Below, piece by piece: positions 7,056 through 51,060 of a DNA stretch of 64,000 bases; positions within the stretch are counted from its first letter, which is position 1, and every line of letters begins with the position of its first letter. The notes below the pieces were generated by a model, which did no database searches, had not been told where the DNA came from, and saw only the letters and a list, made by a program, of their open reading frames with translations. This DNA is from an uncultured Pseudomonadota bacterium (GTDB lineage Bacteria > Desulfobacterota > Binatia > Binatales > Binataceae): the NCBI GenBank assembly GCA_963805995.1, contig CAWDWL010000007.1, forward strand, positions 544,931 to 608,930, in the 5' to 3' direction. The translations under genes and the position numbers were made by a program.

Positions 7056-8159
7056 ATGGAAAACCTGCGCGTCATATCGGCCGATTCACACGTAGTGGAA
7101 CCAGCCAACTTATGGGAAACCCGGCTGGACAAAAACTTCCGTGATCAGGCGCCCAAGGTGGTCCGCACGGAAAAGGGGCTGTGGGTGATCACCGCTCCAG
7201 GAGGAATTTCGTTTCCCGCCGCCGCGATGTTCGCGGCCGGCAAGCGGGGCCAGGAATTGCGCGAGCACATGGGCAAGGGCTACGAAGCCAGCCGTCCCAG
7301 CGGATGGGATCCAAGCGAGCGGGCCAAGGACCAGGATATCGACGGCGTGTTGGCCGAGGTGCTGTACACCAGCAATGGCCTGCCGCTGTTCGGCCTCGAA
7401 GACGCCGAGCTCCAGTATGCCTGCTTCCGCGTCTTTAATGATTGGCTGGCGGAATACTGCGCGGCCAATCCCAAGCGCCTGATGGGCGTGGCCCTGATTT
7501 CCCTGCGCGACATCGCCACCGGGATTGCGGAGTTGGAGCGCTGCGCCAAAACGGGTTTGCGGGGTGCGATGATTTCCAACCATCCCCTTCAACCCTACGA
7601 CAGTCCGGTTTACAATCCGTTCTGGCAAGCCGCTTCCGAACTCGGAATGCCGATCTCGCTGCATATCATTACCAGCACCAAGAAGCAGAGCCTCGGCTCG
7701 TTTTCCGGCTCCAACACCACCACGCTGCAGATCGAGTACGTGTTCGAGACCCAATGCTGCCTGGCGCTGATGCTGATGGGCGGGGTGCTCGAGCGCTATC
7801 CGAACCTGCGGCTGGTTTCGACCGAGAACGATATTGGCTGGATGCCCTACTTCCTGCATCGCCTCGACCACAACTACGAGCTGGGCGCCGCGGCCCGCAA
7901 TCTACCGCCGCTTAAGCCCAGCGAATACGCCCGCCGTCAGCTATGGGCGACCTTCCAGGACGATCCCTGCGGCGTCGCGCTGTATAAGATGTTTGGGGAA
8001 GACAACTTTATGTGGGCGTCGGACTTTCCGCATTCCGATTCCACCTGGCCCCATTCGCAGGCCGTGATCGCGCAAAACTTCGCGTCGATCCCGCAGCCGG
8101 TGGTCCAGAAAATCGTCGCCGACAACGCTGCGCGGCTATACGGAATCGAGTTGAACTGA
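7056..8159 (+). CDS. Amidohydrolase-2 family metal-dependent hydrolase (ACMSD/PF04909-like)
   Basis: The N-terminal ISADSHVVEP motif and HxH...D pattern typical of the amidohydrolase_2 TIM-barrel family. AAAGGAGAAA RBS 7 nt upstream of the ATG. Confidence 0.85.
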   Translation: MENLRVISADSHVVEPANLWETRLDKNFRDQAPKVVRTEKGLWVITAPGGISFPAAAMFAAGKRGQELREHMGKGYEASRPSGWDPSERAKDQDIDGVLAEVLYTSNGLPLFGLEDAELQYACFRVFNDWLAEYCAANPKRLMGVALISLRDIATGIAELERCAKTGLRGAMISNHPLQPYDSPVYNPFWQAASELGMPISLHIITSTKKQSLGSFSGSNTTTLQIEYVFETQCCLALMLMGGVLERYPNLRLVSTENDIGWMPYFLHRLDHNYELGAAARNLPPLKPSEYARRQLWATFQDDPCGVALYKMFGEDNFMWASDFPHSDSTWPHSQAVIAQNFASIPQPVVQKIVADNAARLYGIELN

Positions 8160-10481: not shown

Positions 10482-12576
10482 ATGGAAGCCACACCCACGC
10501 AAATTATTAACTATTTTAGCGGTTTCAAACAAAATTTAGTGCCGCTCTTTCAGCGTCCCTATACTTGGGCCGAACGTCAGTGGCGAACGTTGTGGGAGGA
10601 CATTTGTAGCTTTTACGGGCACGAGGAGAACGCCGGCAAAGCCACGCATTTCATGGGCGCTGTTGTTACCATGCCCGCCCGAAGCGTGCCAGTTGGTGTT
10701 TCAAAGTTCCTGGTCATAGATGGGCAGCAGCGGCTTACAACGATAGCGTTATTGCTGTGCGCCCTCCGCGATAACTTGTCCTCCACCGATGTCGTTCCGA
10801 AACGACGGATACAAGACTCATTACTTGACAAACGATGGATTCGAAGGATCTGATTTCTTTAAACTGTTGCCGACGCAAGGTGATCGGTTGGCCTATTCTC
10901 AATTGATTGAAAACTCGACCTCGACAATTCCGGATTCTCAATTCAAAAAGGCATACGATTTCTTTCGTCGTCGGCTCAGAAGCGAGGATGACGAAGGTAA
11001 TCCGCTTGATCCGAAGCGAATCCTAGAAATCATCGAGACTCGGTTGATGGTAGTAATGATCAACCTGAGCGACAATGACGATCCTTATCTGATTTTCGAA
11101 AGTCTCAACTTTAAAGGTTCACCTTTAGAACAGTCAGACCTCGTAAGGAATTATTTTCTAATGCGATTTCCCGTGACCGAGCAGCAGGGCGTTTATGACG
11201 ACCTATGGTTGCCGATGCAGAATCGACTCGGTCCGAGCTTGACGGAGTTTATGCGCCATTTTCTCGGTTCAGAAGGTGAGGAGGTTCGCAAAGGCGACGT
11301 ATACGCTGCTATAAAGCGCCTCACAGCAGATTCGGAACCGCCGTCGGTTCGCCTCCTCATGAGCCGAATGGAGCAATTGTCCACGTTCTACAGTCGAATT
11401 ACTACAACGGCGCCTGAACCTGACGAGAACATTAGCGAGTTTTTTGTCCGATTTCGTCGGCTTGACTTTGGAACCGCATACCCTCTTCTACTTTCGCTGT
11501 ACGAGGACTTCGTGGATGGTCAATTCGGAACGGAGGAATTCGTCGCTAGCCTAAGGATTCTCGATTCCTACATAATTAGGCGCATGGTGGTCGGAGTTCC
11601 ATCCAACTCCCTCGCCGGTATATTTATTTCATTATGCAAGAGTAAACCGATAACCGAGAGCCCGTCTGCCTGGCTCGCGACGGCTCTTAGCCAGGAGACA
11701 AAAAATCGTCGCTGGCCGATCGAAAAGGAGTTTTTTGACAACTGGGTGAATGGGCCGATATACGGTAGCCGAGCTTGTCAGGTAATTCTGGAATGTCTCG
11801 AGAAGCAGTGCGGACATCATGAGGCTGCCTCTCTCAGTGAGGCAAGTGTCGAGCACGTCCTTCCTCAGACTCTAACTCCCGAATGGGAGGAAGCACTTGG
11901 AGATAGGGCAGCCATTACCCATGACGAATGGCTTCACACCATAGGCAATCTTACACTAACCGGATACAACCCCGAACTCAGCAACAAGCCTTACTCAGAA
12001 AAAAGAAACATTCTTGCAATGAGCCATTTTGAGCTCAATAGGTTTTTCGGAAACTGTGAAGTTTGGGATGATTCAGAAATAAAAAAACGCGCAGAGTCCC
12101 TTTTCATAACGGCGCAACAGCTCTGGCAGCGTCCCTCCGAAGTGCTCGAGGAAGAGCCAACGGTACAGCGGTCCACAGCGGCGAATTTCCACGCCGATTG
12201 CATTCGATTAGCTCAGAAGCATCTGGGCGTCGTGTTATCAAAAGTTTCACAGACGCGCTATGAGGCAGGTGATAAAGAGACCCGACTCGTCTGCGCGGTC
12301 TCAGCAGAACATAACGAGAATGGAGGTATCCCCTACTTTTGGTTTGGCTTGCGTCGCAGTCAAGTGGAATTCTTGGAACAAGTGCCTTCCGCGTGGCTCT
12401 GCTTGGGTTGCGGATCGCCTGAACAGACCTTGCTAGTGCCTATTTTAGTCATAAGCCGCGCTCGTTTCCCAGATGAGTGTATCGATGGGAGAGAATCACC
12501 ATTATTGGCACGTTGTAGTCCAAAGAAGAAATGCGAAGTTCGTATTGCGTCTTCTGGGAGGCATGGATGGGCCTGA
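10482..12576 (+). CDS. GmrSD-family type IV (modification-dependent) restriction endonuclease, DUF262 (ParB-like NTPase) + DUF1524 (HNH-like) domains; the frame is interrupted near 10808-10825, so either a pseudogene or a sequencing indel
   Basis: ORF 10482..10853 carries the DUF262 motifs QRPYTW and DGQQRLTT. ORF 10789..12576, in the +1 frame, continues with the DUF262 YLxN...KLLPT region and later the DUF1524 EHVLPQ motif. The frames overlap, consistent with a single-base indel. Local GC is about 45% against about 65% in the flanks. Confidence 0.65.
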
Positions 12577-37508: not shown

Positions 37509-38564
37509 ATGGGAAAAAGACTCACCGCCCTGATTTTCGTCGCGCTGGCCTTGAGCGGCGTGGCCTTTTACTCTCTTGTTCAGCCCGGACCGGCGCTCGA
37601 GGCGCCACGCTTGGTTGAGGTCAAGCGCGACGAGCATTTAAGAACGATCGCAAGAGATCTCGAGCGTGCGCAGGTGGTCCGCAGCGCGTTGGCTCTGCTA
37701 ACTTATGCCCGCTTAAGCGGCGCCGCCAATCGCCTGCAGCCGGGTGACTACAAATTTTCCGGTGGCGAGACTATCGCGGAGGTACTCGGCCACATCGTCA
37801 GAGGCGAGTCGATCGTAATCACGGTGGCGATCCCCGAGGGTTCCAGCGTGCGGCAAATCGCCCGGCGGCTGGAAACGGCGCGCCTGGTTTGCGACTGGAA
37901 GTTCGTGGAAACCGCGCGCCACTCCGCGTTACCCAAAGCACTGGGACTGGCGCCGCTCGGAGTGGAGGGCTATCTGTTTCCCGCCACCTACCGTTTCACT
38001 CCCACCGTGACCCCCGAAGAAGTTCTCGCCGCCATGCTTGAGCGATTCTTCACCCAGCTGACTCCCCAAGTCGAGCAGCGCGCCTTCGACATGGGGCTTA
38101 GCACCCGGGAGTTAGTTACATTGGCGTCGATGATCGAAAAGGAAGCGAAGGTGCCGGCGGAGCGTCCACTAATTGCGAGCGTTTTCTATAACCGGCTGCG
38201 GTTGCACATGCCGCTTCAATCGGACCCGACGGCGCAGTACAGCTTTGAAGGTGTTACCGGCCCGGCGGCGCAAGCGGTTCACACTCCCTCTTCGTTCAAT
38301 ACCTACGATTTCGCGGGGTTGCCGCCTGGACCGATTGCAAATCCGGGGTGGGACTCGATCCATGCGGCTCTTTATCCAGCCACAACCGGTTATCTATACT
38401 TTGTCGCGCGGAAAGATGGGTCGCATATATTTTCCCGGACGCTAAAGGAGCATGATCGCGCAATCGCAACTATCCGCAGGGACAGTCTCACGCCCGCAGG
38501 GAGCAGCCTGAGGGACTCCACCTCGCCGACGAGCAGGAATCAGAGTAGTGACCGACCCGCTTAA
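37509..38564 (+). CDS. mltG: Endolytic murein transglycosylase MltG (YceG)
   Basis: An N-terminal TM helix and the YceG-like domain (..LTIPEGSS..., YFVA..DGSH.F). Conserved position after ruvX. Confidence 0.85.
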   Translation: MGKRLTALIFVALALSGVAFYSLVQPGPALEAPRLVEVKRDEHLRTIARDLERAQVVRSALALLTYARLSGAANRLQPGDYKFSGGETIAEVLGHIVRGESIVITVAIPEGSSVRQIARRLETARLVCDWKFVETARHSALPKALGLAPLGVEGYLFPATYRFTPTVTPEEVLAAMLERFFTQLTPQVEQRAFDMGLSTRELVTLASMIEKEAKVPAERPLIASVFYNRLRLHMPLQSDPTAQYSFEGVTGPAAQAVHTPSSFNTYDFAGLPPGPIANPGWDSIHAALYPATTGYLYFVARKDGSHIFSRTLKEHDRAIATIRRDSLTPAGSSLRDSTSPTSRNQSSDRPA

Positions 38565-40095
38565 AGCATTACAAATCGTCAAGCAGCGCCTGGCGCGTCT
38601 GGCGGCATTGCAGACTCTGATCGCATCTTTGCCGCCGATAATCGTCCTTTTCGGTGCGGCATTAGGCTTACCCGCGTTGGGCTTTTATACCTGGGAACGT
38701 TGGGGCTTCCTGTTGACGCCGAAATCCGCGCACGGCGCGCACACCGCGATTCTGACGGCAGCGGTGATTGGCCTGCTGGCCGCCGCAGTGGCGGCGTTTA
38801 TCGCTTTTCGGCGCAGCGAGGACACTGCCAGGACGGCGGAACTGGTCGATCGCAAGCTCGGAAGCCATGAAGAAGTCCTGACTCTGGCCACGCTGGCCGA
38901 CGCTGGCCAAAACCCTTCGCGCAGTCCGCTCTTTCCAGTCCTGTGGCGCCGCGCCGCCGAGCACCTCGACCGGCTCGACCCGGCGACGGCGTTCCCGTTC
39001 CAGGCCAAAGAGCCACTTAAGCAGGCGTTGTTCCTGACCGTGTGCACGGCTGGTTTACTGATATCCGGGATCACGGTCCTGCTTGCCGCCAACCACCAAC
39101 CGCTGGGCTCCGACGCCCGCCAATTACGCACAATCGCCCGCGAGATTGCCAACAACGCGGGGGCGGATGCGGCGGCCCGGGACTTGGCCGACAAACTGCG
39201 TGCGGTCGCCGCTACGCTCGAGAACCCGACGGTAGCGCCCGAAGCCAGGCTGGAACAACTCGCGAGCGTTGAGCAGCAACTCAAGGCGCAACAGCAGCGG
39301 CATCAACCGCAGGAAGGCGGGTCGGGCAAAAGCGAGACTGCGGCCACAGGAGCCTCAGGGCAAGGATCAGGGCAGGGTAAGGAAGCACAAGGCAAAGAAG
39401 GATCCGGTCAAGGTAAAGAAGGGTCCGGCTCAGGCAAAGAGGGAACCGGGCAGGGTCAGGGTAAGGGTGACGGCAAAGGAACTGGCGGTGCCGATAGCGG
39501 CCCGGCAAAGAATGGGGAGAAGCAGTTGGCCGACGCCCGCAAGGATATCGCCAAGGTTCAGGCCCAACTGGAAGCGCAAGCCGCGAAGCAAAAACCCTCA
39601 AAGCCATCAGCTGCCAATGGGCTAAAGGCGCGGGCGCCACACCCCGGAGAGCAACCTGATATGGCGATGCTGGAGAGCACCAACAACCGCAATCTCAAGC
39701 AGTTGAAGAGTCCCGGCCAGATCAGACCCAGTCGCGATCACGACCAGAAACCGAACCAGGGGCAGACCGCGTCATCGGGCCAGCCGCAGCGCAAGGACTT
39801 CGGCTCGACGCAAGGCGATACGCATCTGGGGCAATTTCCTGAAGCGAGAAAATTTGAAAGGTTCTACAAGGCCGGCGAGCACGGCCCGCCGATGGACATC
39901 AAGAACGCGCGCTATGTCTTGTTTCGCATCCCGCCCGCAGCGTTAAGCGGGGGCGGTGGAAAAACCGTGACCGACAACGAGCGCCGCTCGGCAACGGTGC
40001 CATACGAAAATCTCCCGCTTAATGCCGAGCGCATCGCGGCCGACCCGGACGAACACCAGCTCGTTCCGCCCCGCTACCGTGACCTGCTGAGATAA
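38548..40095 (+). CDS. Hypothetical membrane protein with central low-complexity Gly/Gln/Lys/Glu-rich repeats (GQGKEG...); first gene of the MoxR-VWA operon
   Basis: GTG start with AGGAA upstream. Two TM segments sit near the N-terminus and one more internally. The nucleotide sequence shows GGTCAAGGTAAAGAAGG-type repeats. Confidence 0.55.
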   Translation: MTDPLKALQIVKQRLARLAALQTLIASLPPIIVLFGAALGLPALGFYTWERWGFLLTPKSAHGAHTAILTAAVIGLLAAAVAAFIAFRRSEDTARTAELVDRKLGSHEEVLTLATLADAGQNPSRSPLFPVLWRRAAEHLDRLDPATAFPFQAKEPLKQALFLTVCTAGLLISGITVLLAANHQPLGSDARQLRTIAREIANNAGADAAARDLADKLRAVAATLENPTVAPEARLEQLASVEQQLKAQQQRHQPQEGGSGKSETAATGASGQGSGQGKEAQGKEGSGQGKEGSGSGKEGTGQGQGKGDGKGTGGADSGPAKNGEKQLADARKDIAKVQAQLEAQAAKQKPSKPSAANGLKARAPHPGEQPDMAMLESTNNRNLKQLKSPGQIRPSRDHDQKPNQGQTASSGQPQRKDFGSTQGDTHLGQFPEARKFERFYKAGEHGPPMDIKNARYVLFRIPPAALSGGGGKTVTDNERRSATVPYENLPLNAERIAADPDEHQLVPPRYRDLLR

Positions 40096-46639: not shown

Positions 46640-48976
46640 ATGGCCGTTGATCCTTTAGCGCAGATGGCTTTTCCGCTTACGCCGGGCGATCCGGAGGAGA
46701 ATGCCCGCGAATGCGCCGATATCCTCACCAATGCAATGACGGATCCGGCAATGACTTCTGGATTCCTGGAGCTGGCCGAAGAAGCGCTGCGCGCCCATCC
46801 CCACGACCCCTTCATTTTGTGCCTCGCCGCGACGGCGGCCCTGCTGGATGAGCAACCTAAATGGGCATTGATCTTCCTGAAGCGGTATCTCAAACGCTAT
46901 CTGCCCCACGACACCTATCACTTGCTGCATGCCCTGGCGCTGGCGCAGCGCAACCAACTGGACGCGGCGGGCGCGATTCTGGAGCGCCATGACCTGACCG
47001 TGTATTACCGGGCCATGCCGGTCTTTCCGGGTGGTCCGGGGCGCAGCAAATGGCTCATGAAATTGCTCGACCGCGTCTTGAAACGCGGCCAGGCAGCCGC
47101 GCGCACACGTGCGACTGCCGCCGGCCGGCCGGCGTCCAAGGCCGCCGCGAAGGCCCGGCCCCGCGCGCATCCGCATCGCGCATCGCCACCGCGCCCGCCG
47201 GTGGCCGCAGACGAAGCATCCGTTGCGCCGCCCAGTCTGCCGCGGATTGACATTGAAATTCCACTCACGATCGAGTTCGATCCCGCTCCGCTGCTGGCCG
47301 CCGGGAAGACCGCGCCAGAATCCGACGGCGGGTGGTATCGACTGCGCGAACGCTTTGCCCATCTGGGTCTGGCCCAGGGTTTCGACGAGTTGCTGTGTTT
47401 GCCCCATCTGCATGGGATCGAAACCTTCAGGTATCAGGTCGAGACCGTGCGCAAGGTGCTCAAGCAGTTCCGCGGCCGGGTACTGTTGGCGGACGAAGTC
47501 GGGCTCGGTAAGACCATCGAAGCCGGCATGGTGCTCAAGGAGTACCTGCTGCGCGGCATGGTCGAGAGCGTGTTGGTGCTGGTGCCGGCATCGCTGGTCG
47601 GACAGTGGCGCGAGGAGCTGGAGACCAAGTTCGACGTCGCCTGCGCCACCACCCACGATGCGCTGGTGCGCAGCGACCCGGATCAGTTCTGGAGCCAGAA
47701 GCGGCTGATCGCGTCGATGGCGCTGGCGCGCAGGAGTGAGCACGCCCAGCAATTGCTCAAACGCAAATTCGACCTCGTCGTGGTTGATGAGGCCCATCAT
47801 TTACGCGTGCGCAGCAGCCAGAGCTACAAGCTGGTGGATGGGTTGAACAAGCGCTTCCTGCTGCTGCTATCCGCCACCCCGGTGCAGAACGAACTGACCG
47901 AGCTGTACAATCTGCTGACCTTGCTCAAGCCGGGCATTTTCAAGACCCTGAAGGAATTCCGCGCCGCCTACATGATCGCCGGCAAGCCACGCCAGCCGGC
48001 CAACCCTGAGCGCCTGCGCGAGCTGATGCGCGGCGCCATGGTCCGCAACACCCGCGCCGTGGTCGCGCTGACGCTGCCGCGCCGTCATGCCACCACCATT
48101 CGGGTCGAGGGGTCCGAAGGCGAGCGCCGCGCCTACGGAGATCTGGCCACGGCTGTACGCGACCTCGCTGCCGCCGGTGATCGGGCGCGACATCGTCTCG
48201 CATTGCATCACCTGCTCGGAGCCGCGGGATCGTCGCCGGCCGCTGCAGCCGCAACGGTTGCTCGCTTCGCCGCGCGCCGCACCGACGAGCCGGTTTGGCA
48301 AGCGCTTGCGGAGCAGTGGTCGGCTTTGGACGCCGGCGGCAAGGAGGCAGCTCTGATCGAACTGCTGCGGCGCAATCCCGTGGAAAAGAAGCTGGTCTTC
48401 GTCCATTACCGCGAAACCCTGAATCATCTCGCCGCTTTGCTCGTACGCGAAGGTATCGGGTTCGCGTGCTTCGAAGGCGCTCTCAGTGGTCCCGACAAGG
48501 ACGCTGCGATTGCCGACTTTCGGGATCGCGTGCCGGTGCTGCTGTGCACCGAATCGGGCGGCGAGGGCCGCAACATTCAATTCTGCAACACTCTGATCAA
48601 TTTCGATGTCCCCTGGAATCCCATGACCATCGAACAACGCATCGGCCGCGTCGATCGCATCGGCCAGCAGCGCAACGTGTTCGTGTTCAATCTCGTAACC
48701 CGCGGCACACTGGAGGAGCGCATCCTGCACCTGCTCGAAGAAAAGATCTCCATGTTCGAGCTGGTGGTGGGCGAAGTCGGTGCAATCCTCGGAAGTCTCG
48801 AGGAAGACCGGGATTTCTCCGAACTGGTGCTGGCCGCGTGGTTGGAAACCACCGAAACCACCAGGACCCAGGCCTTCGACGCCATCGCCCACCTTCTGGA
48901 CGGGGCGCGGGGTGATCACGATGACGCCAAGGTCCTCGACGAAACCCTGTTCGGCGAAGACTTCGAGACCGCATGA
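46640..48976 (+). CDS. SNF2-family DEAD/DEAH-box helicase (RapA/HepA-like) with an N-terminal alpha-helical/Ala-Pro-rich extension of about 250 aa
   Basis: Motif I LLADEVGLGKTIEAG, motif II VVVDEAHHLR, motif III LLLSATPVQN, and the helicase-C domain (..LLCTESGGEGRN.QF.., QRIGRVDRIGQ). Confidence 0.9.
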   Translation: MAVDPLAQMAFPLTPGDPEENARECADILTNAMTDPAMTSGFLELAEEALRAHPHDPFILCLAATAALLDEQPKWALIFLKRYLKRYLPHDTYHLLHALALAQRNQLDAAGAILERHDLTVYYRAMPVFPGGPGRSKWLMKLLDRVLKRGQAAARTRATAAGRPASKAAAKARPRAHPHRASPPRPPVAADEASVAPPSLPRIDIEIPLTIEFDPAPLLAAGKTAPESDGGWYRLRERFAHLGLAQGFDELLCLPHLHGIETFRYQVETVRKVLKQFRGRVLLADEVGLGKTIEAGMVLKEYLLRGMVESVLVLVPASLVGQWREELETKFDVACATTHDALVRSDPDQFWSQKRLIASMALARRSEHAQQLLKRKFDLVVVDEAHHLRVRSSQSYKLVDGLNKRFLLLLSATPVQNELTELYNLLTLLKPGIFKTLKEFRAAYMIAGKPRQPANPERLRELMRGAMVRNTRAVVALTLPRRHATTIRVEGSEGERRAYGDLATAVRDLAAAGDRARHRLALHHLLGAAGSSPAAAAATVARFAARRTDEPVWQALAEQWSALDAGGKEAALIELLRRNPVEKKLVFVHYRETLNHLAALLVREGIGFACFEGALSGPDKDAAIADFRDRVPVLLCTESGGEGRNIQFCNTLINFDVPWNPMTIEQRIGRVDRIGQQRNVFVFNLVTRGTLEERILHLLEEKISMFELVVGEVGAILGSLEEDRDFSELVLAAWLETTETTRTQAFDAIAHLLDGARGDHDDAKVLDETLFGEDFETA

Positions 48977-48991
48977 GGCGGGCGGCAGGCG

Positions 48992-50170
48992 ATGGGTGAA
49001 TTGCGGGATTTCGTCGCCGGGATACTGGAGCATCAAGGCGCCGCGGTCGAGATCATAGAACCCGACCAGCTTGAAGCGCTGGTGCCCCAATCGTTGCAGC
49101 AAACCACGGGCTGGCCGGAACTGGCCCGGCTCAGGTTCGGGGCCCAAGGACCGGAGCGGGCCATTCCGATTGGACTGGAAGGGGATTGGCTGGAGCGCTT
49201 TGGCTCGCTCTTGGGCGAACATGGCCGCTGGGCCGAGCGAGAGCTCACGCTGTGGAACGCGGACGCGCCGGGCGATCCGGAACGAGCGATCGAACGCGCG
49301 CTCGAACTGCCCAATGCGGTCTGGCGCTTCCAAGGCCTGACCCCGACCTTCACCTGCTGTCTGGTGCTGGTCTTCCGTTGCACCGCGGTATCGGACGAAA
49401 AACGCGAGGGACTGATCTGGCTCGGATTCAATCTCGCTACCGGCGCCGTCGTCGATGAGATCGTGCCGCGGCTGCGGACCGTTCTGGCTCAGGACCCGGA
49501 ATGGCAGGTTCCCACGGCGGCGGCACGTCTTGCGGCGGGGCCAGGGTGGGATTCGACCGTGCTCGAACGGCGGGTCCGACCGTTGCTCGACTATCGGGAA
49601 CGACGGGAGTTGGAACCGTTCCTGCGCTCCATGCGGCGGCGCCTTGAGCGCGACCGCAACCGCGTGCACGCCTACCATAACGACTTGCACCGGGCGTCGC
49701 GCAAGCGGCTCGCGGCGCTGGGCGGCGACACCGGAAGTGAAAAATCCGAAGCCGAGCGCGCGCGTGAGCGGCTGCGGATAACGGCAATCGAACGCGAGTA
49801 CCAGGCCAAGCTCGACGATCTGCGTCACAACTACGCCTTGCGAATCACGGTCGAGTGGGTTCAAGGCTTGAAATTGTATTTGCCGGTGCAGCGCTTTGAA
49901 GTGCTGGTTCGCCGCCGCAAAGGAGAACGGTTAATCCGGCTGGACTGGCATCCTTTGGCCCGGCTGACTGAACCGCCCCCCTGCGACTGGGGATTGGGTC
50001 TGGATCGGGTCCGCCTCGTCTGCGACGAGAAGCTGCATTTGACCGAACCTTCCGGCCAGGACCCGTGCCCCTCCTGCGGCAAAGCATGGTGCCGCGCCTG
50101 CCATCCCACCCGCTGCCCCCGCTGCGGCGAGACGAGTAAGCGAAACGGCAGCGGATTGATGGGAATTTGA
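48992..50170 (+). CDS. Hypothetical protein (392 aa) with a central coiled-coil/Arg-rich region and a C-terminal Cys-rich zinc-ribbon (CPSCGKAWCRACHPTRCPRCGE); partner of the SNF2 helicase
   Basis: It starts 16 nt after the helicase stop on the same strand. CxxC...CxxCH...CxxC motifs at the C-terminus. I recognise no family. Confidence 0.65.
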   Translation: MGELRDFVAGILEHQGAAVEIIEPDQLEALVPQSLQQTTGWPELARLRFGAQGPERAIPIGLEGDWLERFGSLLGEHGRWAERELTLWNADAPGDPERAIERALELPNAVWRFQGLTPTFTCCLVLVFRCTAVSDEKREGLIWLGFNLATGAVVDEIVPRLRTVLAQDPEWQVPTAAARLAAGPGWDSTVLERRVRPLLDYRERRELEPFLRSMRRRLERDRNRVHAYHNDLHRASRKRLAALGGDTGSEKSEAERARERLRITAIEREYQAKLDDLRHNYALRITVEWVQGLKLYLPVQRFEVLVRRRKGERLIRLDWHPLARLTEPPPCDWGLGLDRVRLVCDEKLHLTEPSGQDPCPSCGKAWCRACHPTRCPRCGETSKRNGSGLMGI

Positions 50171-50218: not shown

Positions 50219-50921
50219 TCAATCGCGATCGGTCGCTCGCCCGGTAGCCTTTAGATGAACTTCCAGCAATTGCTTGGCGAGAGCCTCATCTAATAACGCT
50301 TCCAACTCGCCGACATCCAAGCGGTTCGTTTTCCAAGCTTCGTCCGCAGCTTCAAGAGCCTTGTAATATGGGGCCTTATTGTTTGCTATCTGTTCAAATA
50401 TTGCGTTAGTTCCGGGGAGTTCGTAGCCCAGTCGGATACAAAGCAATGCATACGAGGCCATCCGCGACGTTCTTCCGTTGCCGTCGTCAAAGGGATGAAT
50501 CCAATTGACTCGCCAGATCAAATAGGCTGCGATGTGAATTGGTGGCTTTTCTGGGTTATCATTGACATAGTCGCACATTTCTTCCATTAGGCTGGGAACC
50601 ATATCCGGCGGAGGAGGATTATGCCGACTGTAGCTGATTTCCATTTCGTCCGGGCGATAAACCCCGGGAAATGGAATTCAGTCCTTTGATTGCCGCCCGA
50701 TTCAAGCCGAGGACATGTGACGGGCGCAAGCGAAATCCGTGAGAGCTAGCTATCGCCTCTCTGATTAGCGCGCGAGCAAAATCTACCTGAAGCAAACCGT
50801 TGCGGGCTTCAAGAAGCGCTATTTCCTCAGGGTCAGTTGGCAGTTCTGCCCTCTGCGGTTTGCTTGCGCGTTCGCCCTGTTTATTCAGATCGTTCCTCCT
50901 CCAGCAGGCGAGCGGCCTGTT
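50219..50921 (-). pseudogene. Fic/Doc family protein (Fido domain), disrupted by a frameshift near 50655-50671
   Basis: The C-terminal frame (50219..50659) carries the Fic motif HPFDDGNGRTSR and, upstream of it, the YRPDE-EISYSRHNPPPPDMVPSLMEEMCDYVN block. The N-terminal part (..FARALIREAIASSHGFRLRPSHVLGLNRAAIKGLNSI..) lies in another frame, and no ATG start is evident. Confidence 0.6.
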
Positions 50922-51060
50922 CTATGGTCGCTTTGGTGATCCGATCGTTTTCAATCTTCGTATTTCCATAGGCTAGGCTGCGTCTCTGTTGTTCATACTC
51001 TTCAGCGGTCATTCTGACCGTGCGAGCCTTGTCTAGAAGAGCCTGTAATTCCTTAGACAA
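50881..51060 (-). CDS. Small ORF (59 aa, TTG start with GGAGGT 9 nt upstream), possible Fic-associated antitoxin-like protein
   Basis: Translated manually: MSKELQALLDKARTVRMTAEEYEQQRRSLAYGNTKIENDRITKATIEQAARLLEEERSE. Its stop abuts or overlaps the start region of the Fic pseudogene. It is absent from the ORF track because of its size and non-ATG start. Confidence 0.3.
   Translation of the reverse strand: MSKELQALLDKARTVRMTAEEYEQQRRSLAYGNTKIENDRITKATIEQAARLLEEERSE

Follow-up and report, generated by a model that had tools for sequence, protein, structure and literature searches.

A two-gene locus in the Binataceae window

The window analysed here is a stretch of 64,000 nucleotides (nt) from an uncultured bacterium of the Binataceae (contig CAWDWL010000007.1, positions 544,931 to 608,930, forward strand). 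Within it, two adjacent genes encode an ATPase of the SNF2 family and a partner protein that ends in a Cys/His-rich module, and from their sequences we identify the pair as a long form of the YqhH-YqhG module of Bacillus. An original prediction, made from the letters of the window, had singled out these two open reading frames (ORFs); their lengths in amino acids (aa) and their coordinates were as given there, and both lie on the plus strand, whereas the gap between them measured 15 nt instead of 16 nt. The locus comprises:

46640-48976, + strand: gene of a YqhH-type SNF2-family ATPase, 778 aa (ORF with ATG start; Pfam, and BLASTP to YqhH)
48977-48991, + strand: spacer GGCGGGCGGCAGGCG, 15 nt from stop to ATG (5-20 nt in 69 of 75 related loci)
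48992-50170, + strand: partner gene, 392 aa, long-form YqhG-like with C-terminal zinc module (ORF with ATG start; homologs)

Neither a promoter-like nor a terminator-like site was found between the two genes, and translational coupling of ATPase and partner is plausible. Some other loci fall outside the 5-20 nt range, with junction overlaps of 4-14 nt.

A scan in which each species was represented by a single genome yielded 80 loci, and the same SNF2 gene lay directly 5' of the partner gene in all 78 that had upstream DNA, at 56-76% identity. The pairing also held at 26-50% partner identity, in a groundwater lineage (SNF2 of 773 aa, 4-nt overlap), in Planctomycetes (776 aa) and in Blastocatellia (786 aa). 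The partner family comprises upwards of 1,200 homolog clusters at 90% identity and 1,068 at 50%, so that the locus is far from a chance finding. The homologs are nearly all stand-alone proteins of 370-395 aa annotated as "hypothetical", and clustering of the surrounding ORFs found no third family in more than about six loci. The pair is therefore a genuine, self-contained two-gene module of an SNF2 ATPase and a zinc protein. This is what the original prediction had proposed, and the gene-neighbourhood analysis that it had suggested as a check gave the same answer, the partner homologs always lying beside the same SNF2 clade in the 78 loci and in the further phyla.

Profile evidence for homology of the partner to YqhG

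The original prediction had found no family to which the partner could be assigned. Searches of Pfam, NCBIfam, PADLOC and PHROGs returned nothing above threshold, and comparison of the partner profile with PDB sequences returned only apolipoprotein-like coiled-coil noise. Nevertheless, the protein can be recognized as a remote homolog of YqhG. In hmmscan the window partner reached 11.1 bits (E 0.19) against the Pfam YqhG model (PF11079), below the gathering threshold of 25 bits, compared with 419 bits for B. subtilis YqhG itself. When family members were scanned individually, weak YqhG matches appeared for 5 of 34 close and 7 of 67 diverse members (best E 1.2e-5), and the recurrent matches share one register around the SDEKR loop; for instance, residues 114-233 of the relative P0203 matched YqhG profile positions 111-230.

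Profile-profile comparison gave a much stronger signal. With a profile of 67 diverse partner relatives set against a profile of 24 YqhG sequences, hhalign returned a probability of 94.8% (E 5.3e-8) over 205 columns, covering partner residues 1-233 and YqhG residues 1-225, and the control with a reversed YqhG profile returned 0.2%. The non-helical N-terminal part of the partner alone still gave 91.8% (E 7e-7), and a narrower partner profile aligned residues 1-305 with YqhG 1-265. On the strength of the profile-profile result, its controls and the conserved gene context, we regard the homology of the partner to YqhG as established, and the pair as matching the yqhH-yqhG operon of Bacillus.

The following features were assigned to the partner, all on the + strand:

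48992-49690: region homologous to Pfam YqhG, residues 1-233 (to about 305 with the narrower profile; hhalign, hmmscan)
49391-49405: residues 134-138, the invariant loop S-D-E-K-R, which caps a long beta-hairpin and corresponds in alignments to SD(M/R)KKD of YqhG
49553-49831: Arg-rich antiparallel helical hairpin, residues 188-280 (AlphaFold2 helices 188-244 and 250-280, predicted local distance difference test score (pLDDT) 83-94)
49841-49948: beta-hairpin, residues 284-319, completing a sheet with strands 110-147 (AlphaFold2 model)
49982-50125: predicted Cys/His-rich zinc module formed by C331, C344, H349, C359, C362, C367, C370, H371, C375 and C378

The partner is thus a long-form YqhG, with the shared unit of alpha/beta domain and beta-sheet, a longer inserted basic hairpin and an added zinc module. 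Its N-terminal half is acidic. Segment 188-283 is basic (isoelectric point (pI) 10.7, 25 Arg+Lys), in keeping with the Arg-rich centre noticed originally, and in the AlphaFold2 model it forms a long helical hairpin, whose tip sequence is not conserved. The model has a pLDDT of 71.5, with no confident prediction for the zinc module. As a truncated model of residues 1-189 collapsed (pLDDT 56), the N-terminal domain appears to need strands 284-319, which defines a unit of about residues 1-320. The AlphaFold check suggested in the original prediction gave no informative fold match.

Within the zinc module, the CxxC-x4-CxxCH-x3-CxxC pattern read originally from the sequence was found exactly, at C359-C378 (C359-x2-C362-x4-C367-x2-C370-H371-x3-C375-x2-C378). 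Its six Cys and the S-D-E-K-R loop are invariant in 34 homologs, and the region produced weak zinc-ribbon-type matches to the HypA, IBR and Zn_ribbon families. With about 11 Cys and a single His, the ancestral module could accommodate roughly three Zn; the window clade has lost two of these ligand positions and probably binds two Zn. Searches of Pfam, PADLOC and NCBIfam revealed no nuclease, methylase or other effector domain in either the partner or the ATPase.

A "split RapA", in which the partner would correspond to the C-terminal domains of RapA, was tried and rejected (hhalign 0.2%, in a weak single-sequence test).

Assignment of the ATPase to the YqhH clade

Residues 270-675 of the ATPase matched the Pfam families SNF2-rel_dom (3e-37) and Helicase_C (3e-22). 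Direct reading confirmed the original statement that all helicase motifs are present, motifs I-VI being intact (I, GLGKT at 288-292; Ia at 312-323; II, DEAH at 383-386; III, SATP at 411-414; V, GGEG at 640-643; VI, QRIGRVDRIGQ at 666-676). In BLASTP the protein aligned with B. subtilis YqhH at 35% identity over 514 aa with 5% gaps (323 bits, E 1e-105), spanning residues 20-518 of the 557 of YqhH, and scored 330 bits against the Anoxybacillus ortholog. Against E. coli RapA, the nearest relative of the motor with a solved structure, it scored 156 bits at 30% identity with 23% gaps, and only the motor aligned (ATPase residues 265-707, RapA 157-633).

Scores against the RapA, DrmD, DpdE and ZorD models ranged from 77 to 250 bits, with cutoffs of 500-1500; the NCBIfam RapA model NF003426 gave 243.5 bits (equivalog cutoff 576) and the DrmD model 250 bits (equivalog cutoff 610). 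RapA carries N-terminal tandem Tudor-like domains and C-terminal alpha+beta domains (PMC12839542, PMC8501970), none of which was detected in the ATPase by sequence-level comparison. Because the match to YqhH is full-length and the scores against RapA, DrmD, DpdE and ZorD lie below their cutoffs, we assign the ATPase, by sequence, to the YqhH clade of SNF2 proteins, with an added N-extension, and to the orthologs of neither RapA nor DrmD. The features of the ATPase, all on the + strand, are:

46640-47044: N-terminal extension, residues 1-135, without counterpart in Bacillus YqhH (weak TPR-like or helical hints)
47045-47317: basic Ala/Pro/Arg-rich linker, residues 136-226 (pI 11.5; 35 Ala+Pro in 91 residues)
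47318-48844: SNF2 motor with short flanks, residues 227-735 (collinear with full-length YqhH; motifs I-VI intact)
48845-48973: acidic C-terminal tail, residues 736-778 (pI 4.1)

With 778 aa the ATPase differs from the motor-only YqhH of about 550 aa, and its long-form relatives have 773-786 aa. No Pfam domain above threshold was found in residues 1-226, and a PDB sequence search with the N-extension gave nothing significant, the weak hints being to ANAPC3 (TPR; E 0.004) and to the TPR protein PA4667 in the PDB (E 1.3). The extension is kept in most of the 78 loci and could not be aligned with an equally long, distantly related SNF2 of the long form (locus L166).

The yqhH-yqhG pair of Bacillus

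The B. subtilis yqhH-yqhG locus, which was reached via SinR, encodes YqhH (557 aa) and, 20 nt further on, YqhG (264 aa). Adjacency of B. subtilis yqhG to yqhH, a Swi2/Snf2 ATPase, has been reported (PMC6123443, PMC7385302), and YqhH ("HepA") is counted among the RNA polymerase-interacting Swi2/Snf2 translocases of this organism and described as poorly characterised (PMC7385302). In B. thuringiensis a yqhH knockout is sensitive to ultraviolet (UV) light, and ATPase and unwinding activities are reported for the protein in purified form (PMC10054049). The short-form pair of Bacillaceae lies next to gcvT/glycine-cleavage genes in both B. subtilis and Anoxybacillus and is intact in every subtilis-group locus; because its position beside gcvT is conserved, it behaves as a core gene pair and not as part of an island. 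In the searchable literature, YqhG-family proteins are tied to neither SNF2 proteins nor defence, and no account of the long form or of YqhG as a partner of SNF2 was found there. Papers on "yqhG" of E. coli and S. aureus appear to treat a different protein, described as periplasmic.

Distribution and mobility of the long form

The 80 loci of the scan belong mostly to Hyphomicrobiales and other Alphaproteobacteria, with Binataceae also represented, and include particular strains of Bradyrhizobium, Rhodoplanes, Vineibacter and Azospirillum brasilense. Further named partner matches came from Pyrinomonadaceae and Deferrisomatales. The module is scattered among soil bacteria from five or more phyla. 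It was found on one of 72,556 plasmids and in none of 50,697 phages.

As an alternative to its own proposal, the original prediction had named a housekeeping RapA locus kept at a syntenic position. This did not apply: a copy of the pair with 74% identity is located in a different genomic context, and the MoxR, DUF58, BatA, VWA, Fic, Usp, NADK, RecN and PK genes that surround the pair in the window recur in none of the 80 loci. A census of the two nearest genes on each side, taken from the first approximately 48 of the 80 loci, yielded 150 genes that represent 147 Pfam families, each confined to three loci at most. In its behaviour the long form is an accessory module.

Several loci depart from the usual arrangement. 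A Blastocatellia locus (L174) has an extra ORF of 194 aa (7420-8004, + strand) between SNF2 and partner, which overlaps the partner by 4 nt and shows no Pfam domain and only a weak SAM_2 hint. The sole plasmid copy (Rhodovastum atsumiense plasmid RHOApc, locus L170, 5428-8143) sits among IS630/IS66 insertion sequences and adjoins a RepB-primase gene. Its SNF2 is annotated with 522 aa, begins at motif I and is probably 5'-truncated; the copy had at first seemed to combine a short SNF2 with a long partner, and was set aside as evidence on covariation of the ATPase and partner extensions. In two independent assemblies (L085, 7665-9990; L086, 3-1842) the SNF2 gene is divided at one identical position into two called ORFs (369/207+ and 407 aa), which could be a real frameshift, a split gene or a shared sequencing error.

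Genomic context of the pair

Upstream of the pair, the window contains a MoxR(AAA_3)-DUF58-BatA-VWA operon, and downstream it contains genes for NAD kinase, RecN and pyruvate kinase, with only a decayed Fic module between the pair and the core genes; a Usp gene is also among those flanking the pair. The decay described in the original prediction agrees with the truncated Fic profile coverage and the small ORFs nearby. The Fic ORF (141 aa, within 50219-51060, minus strand) keeps the HPFxxGNGR motif and covers only the C-terminal two-thirds of the profile; upstream of it lie an ORF of 58 aa in another frame (50619-50795) and one of 59 aa (50881-51060), possibly an antitoxin, neither with a Pfam match. 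Repeats around the pair did not exceed chance level, Rfam gave no match there, and the window contains no tRNA.

The original view of this neighbourhood as typical of defence or mobile islands was not upheld, as the flanks are ordinary and the other loci have heterogeneous metabolic genes with few defence matches. The DISARM-like context fared no better: companion genes of DISARM, BREX, Dpd and Zorya are absent from the window flanks, and neither drmA, drmB or drmC nor methylase companions are recurrent neighbours in the 80 loci.

A GmrSD-type type IV restriction endonuclease is encoded at 10482-12576 (+ strand) by two overlapping ORFs, with GmrSD_N in one and GmrSD_N plus GmrSD_C in the next. 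It lies in the only low-G+C patch of the window (0.50 versus about 0.61), 35 kb from the pair, and probably represents a defence gene acquired by horizontal transfer and disrupted by a frameshift. Directly 5' of the MoxR gene, an ORF of 515 aa (38548-40095, + strand) has an extended low-complexity centre rich in Gly, Ser, Lys and Gln and no Pfam match. In most of the annotated contexts inspected, toxin-antitoxin genes lie about 3 kb or less from the pair (L081, L083/L084, L167, L169, L170 and L175), their types being RHH_1, HigB, HTH with SocA_Panacea, Phd with PIN, Phd, and ParE with an antitoxin. The Fic fragment has a comparable place beside the window pair.

A putative remodelling machine and its alternatives

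The reading that we favour, with confidence that is evenly balanced, is that the two proteins form one machine, in which an ATPase that translocates on double-stranded DNA works with a non-enzymatic targeting or regulatory subunit to remodel stalled protein-DNA complexes; complex formation, target and remodelling activity are all inferred. According to this proposal, the ATPase, a member of the YqhH clade and thereby related to RapA, would move along double-stranded DNA, and the acidic YqhG-like alpha/beta domain of the partner would dock on the motor, leaving the basic hairpin and the zinc module to bind nucleic acid or a DNA-bound protein. ATP-driven translocation would then dislodge or remodel the bound complex, most plausibly RNA polymerase in a stalled or post-termination state or a complex halted at a lesion, as a stress or repair accessory function and not in immunity. 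Such targets seem the likeliest because RapA is the nearest characterised relative and the yqhH knockout of B. thuringiensis is UV-sensitive, and an adaptor with a nucleic-acid-binding arm fits a partner whose hairpin is strongly basic and whose N-terminal domain is acidic.

Several points weigh against this proposal. The searchable literature contains no experiment or structure that ties YqhG-type proteins to SNF2, to RNA polymerase or to DNA, and as the domains at either end of RapA have no sequence counterpart in the ATPase, the link to RNA polymerase cannot be transferred from that protein. The AlphaFold2 model of the partner reaches only moderate confidence (pLDDT 71.5), and fold searches with it gave no informative match. 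Moreover, the long form is patchy within genera, occurring in some Bradyrhizobium strains and in one Azospirillum brasilense, and its identity of about 60-70% between Alphaproteobacteria and Binatia implies horizontal transfer. In L083/L084 the pair lies inside an integrative mobilisable element with a relaxase, AlpA, HigB and an adjacent integrase. Finally, toxin-antitoxin genes are often nearby; like the location in the element, this is the behaviour of an accessory gene and is typical of defence genes as well.

These last observations would suit a stand-alone two-gene system against phages or mobile elements, in which the zinc/coiled-coil partner would sense foreign DNA or a phage protein and the SNF2 motor, with no nuclease, would act on the DNA of the invader by stripping it or blocking its replication or transcription. 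Such a role, the main alternative, which we consider rather unlikely, would agree with a patchy multi-phylum distribution showing signs of horizontal transfer, with carriage of the pair as cargo of the integrase/relaxase element, with toxin-antitoxin modules, insertion sequences or integrases near many loci and with the decayed Fic module that adjoins the window pair. In addition, the motor scores well against the DrmD, BrxH, DpdE, HmaA and ZorD models. These matches are nonetheless limited to the generic motor and fall well below every equivalog cutoff, the partner matches no PADLOC or PHROG model, and neither protein has an effector domain. Moreover, credible defence matches numbered only about four among the 150 nearest neighbours (mad3 twice, mad8 and AriA), the module is nearly absent from the plasmids and phages searched, and the Bacillus homologs form an operon that is both core and syntenic. 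Defence thus ranks as less likely than remodelling.

A broader and quite tentative proposal is that SNF2-YqhG pairs make up an unrecognised, widespread class of two-subunit remodelers, in which the multi-zinc partner would be the sensor and the mobile long form would serve either in effector-less immunity or action against mobile elements, evicting or blocking the replication or transcription complexes of foreign DNA, or as a bacterial counterpart of SNF2 plus RING-type damage-response factors. The superfamily extends over about 1,000 long-form clusters at 50% identity together with the Bacillaceae short form, and the comparison for the damage-response alternative is with the eukaryotic remodelers that combine SNF2 with RING-type domains.

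It is improbable that the module works for mobile elements, remodelling host nucleoid or transcription complexes for integration, excision or establishment, with the chromosomal copies as remnants. The position in L083/L084 between relaxase/AlpA and integrase and the plasmid copy beside a RepB primase and insertion sequences would be expected on such a view, but integrases or transposases are the nearest neighbours in few loci (about 8 of the 150 genes), most loci have plain metabolic neighbours, plasmids and phages virtually lack the module, and the Bacillus homologs are core genes. Least probable is an orthodox RapA (HepA) RNA polymerase recycling factor with an unrelated gene downstream: although RapA is the closest solved structure and its NCBIfam model gives 243 bits, the equivalog cutoff of 576 bits is not reached, the alignment covers the motor only with 23% gaps, the N- and C-terminal domains of RapA find no aligned counterpart, the downstream gene is linked in 78 of 78 loci and the locus is not syntenic among relatives.

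Significance

YqhH-YqhG is a known, uncharacterised kind of gene pair, and its long form is a distinct variant without a family model. The assignment ties a large orphan family, for which Pfam, NCBIfam and PADLOC offer no model and whose members are nearly always annotated as "hypothetical", to the named and unstudied yqhG of B. subtilis, and it presents YqhG-type proteins as obligate partners of one SNF2 clade in Bacillota, Pseudomonadota, Acidobacteriota, Planctomycetota and Binatia. The function of this widespread bacterial SNF2 clade is now testable through B. subtilis genetics. The locus also advises caution, as motor-domain similarity alone is insufficient to call stand-alone SNF2 pairs defence systems.

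Comparison with known systems

The window ATPase resembles the SNF2 helicases of defence systems in its motor, with PADLOC E values of 1e-40 to 1e-70 for DrmD of DISARM, BrxHII of BREX type 3, DpdE of Dpd, ZorD of Zorya and HmaA of Hma. It differs from them in scoring well under the family cutoffs and in having no fused nuclease or Tudor domains, and the pair has none of the defining companion genes of those systems nearby. As in SNF2 plus SWIM pairs, the ATPase gene adjoins that of a zinc-binding protein. The SWIM-like comparison drawn in the original prediction nevertheless failed, as no Pfam SWIM match appeared at E values up to 5 in 34 members of the partner family and, unlike the CxCxnCxH motif of SWIM, the partner module is of multi-CxxC type with weak zinc-ribbon/RING/IBR-like matches.

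Among factors that combine a coiled coil with a zinc finger, no sequence relationship was found between the partner and the CT398/HP0958 family; the resemblance is one of generic helical hairpins, and the hairpin of the partner, unlike theirs, is inserted into an alpha/beta fold of YqhG type. DksA/TraR provide a functional analogy among such coiled-coil-hairpin and zinc-finger factors. For the ATPase, the best functional analogy is E. coli RapA, a bacterial SNF2 translocase with a related motor that works on a protein-DNA complex. RapA is a single polypeptide with no obligate partner gene, whereas the window ATPase comes with one.

The closest comparison remains that with Bacillus yqhH-yqhG. 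The long form differs from it in the approximately 225 additional N-terminal residues of the ATPase and in the length of the partner (392 versus 264 aa), with its far longer basic hairpin and added Cys-rich zinc module, and it is sporadic, in variable contexts, where the Bacillus pair is core and syntenic. In both, however, the SNF2 gene precedes the partner gene on the same strand at similar spacing (20 nt or overlapping in Bacillus), the ATPase is collinear with the full length of YqhH at 35% identity, and the partner matches along the entire YqhG, the SDxKxD/E loop included.

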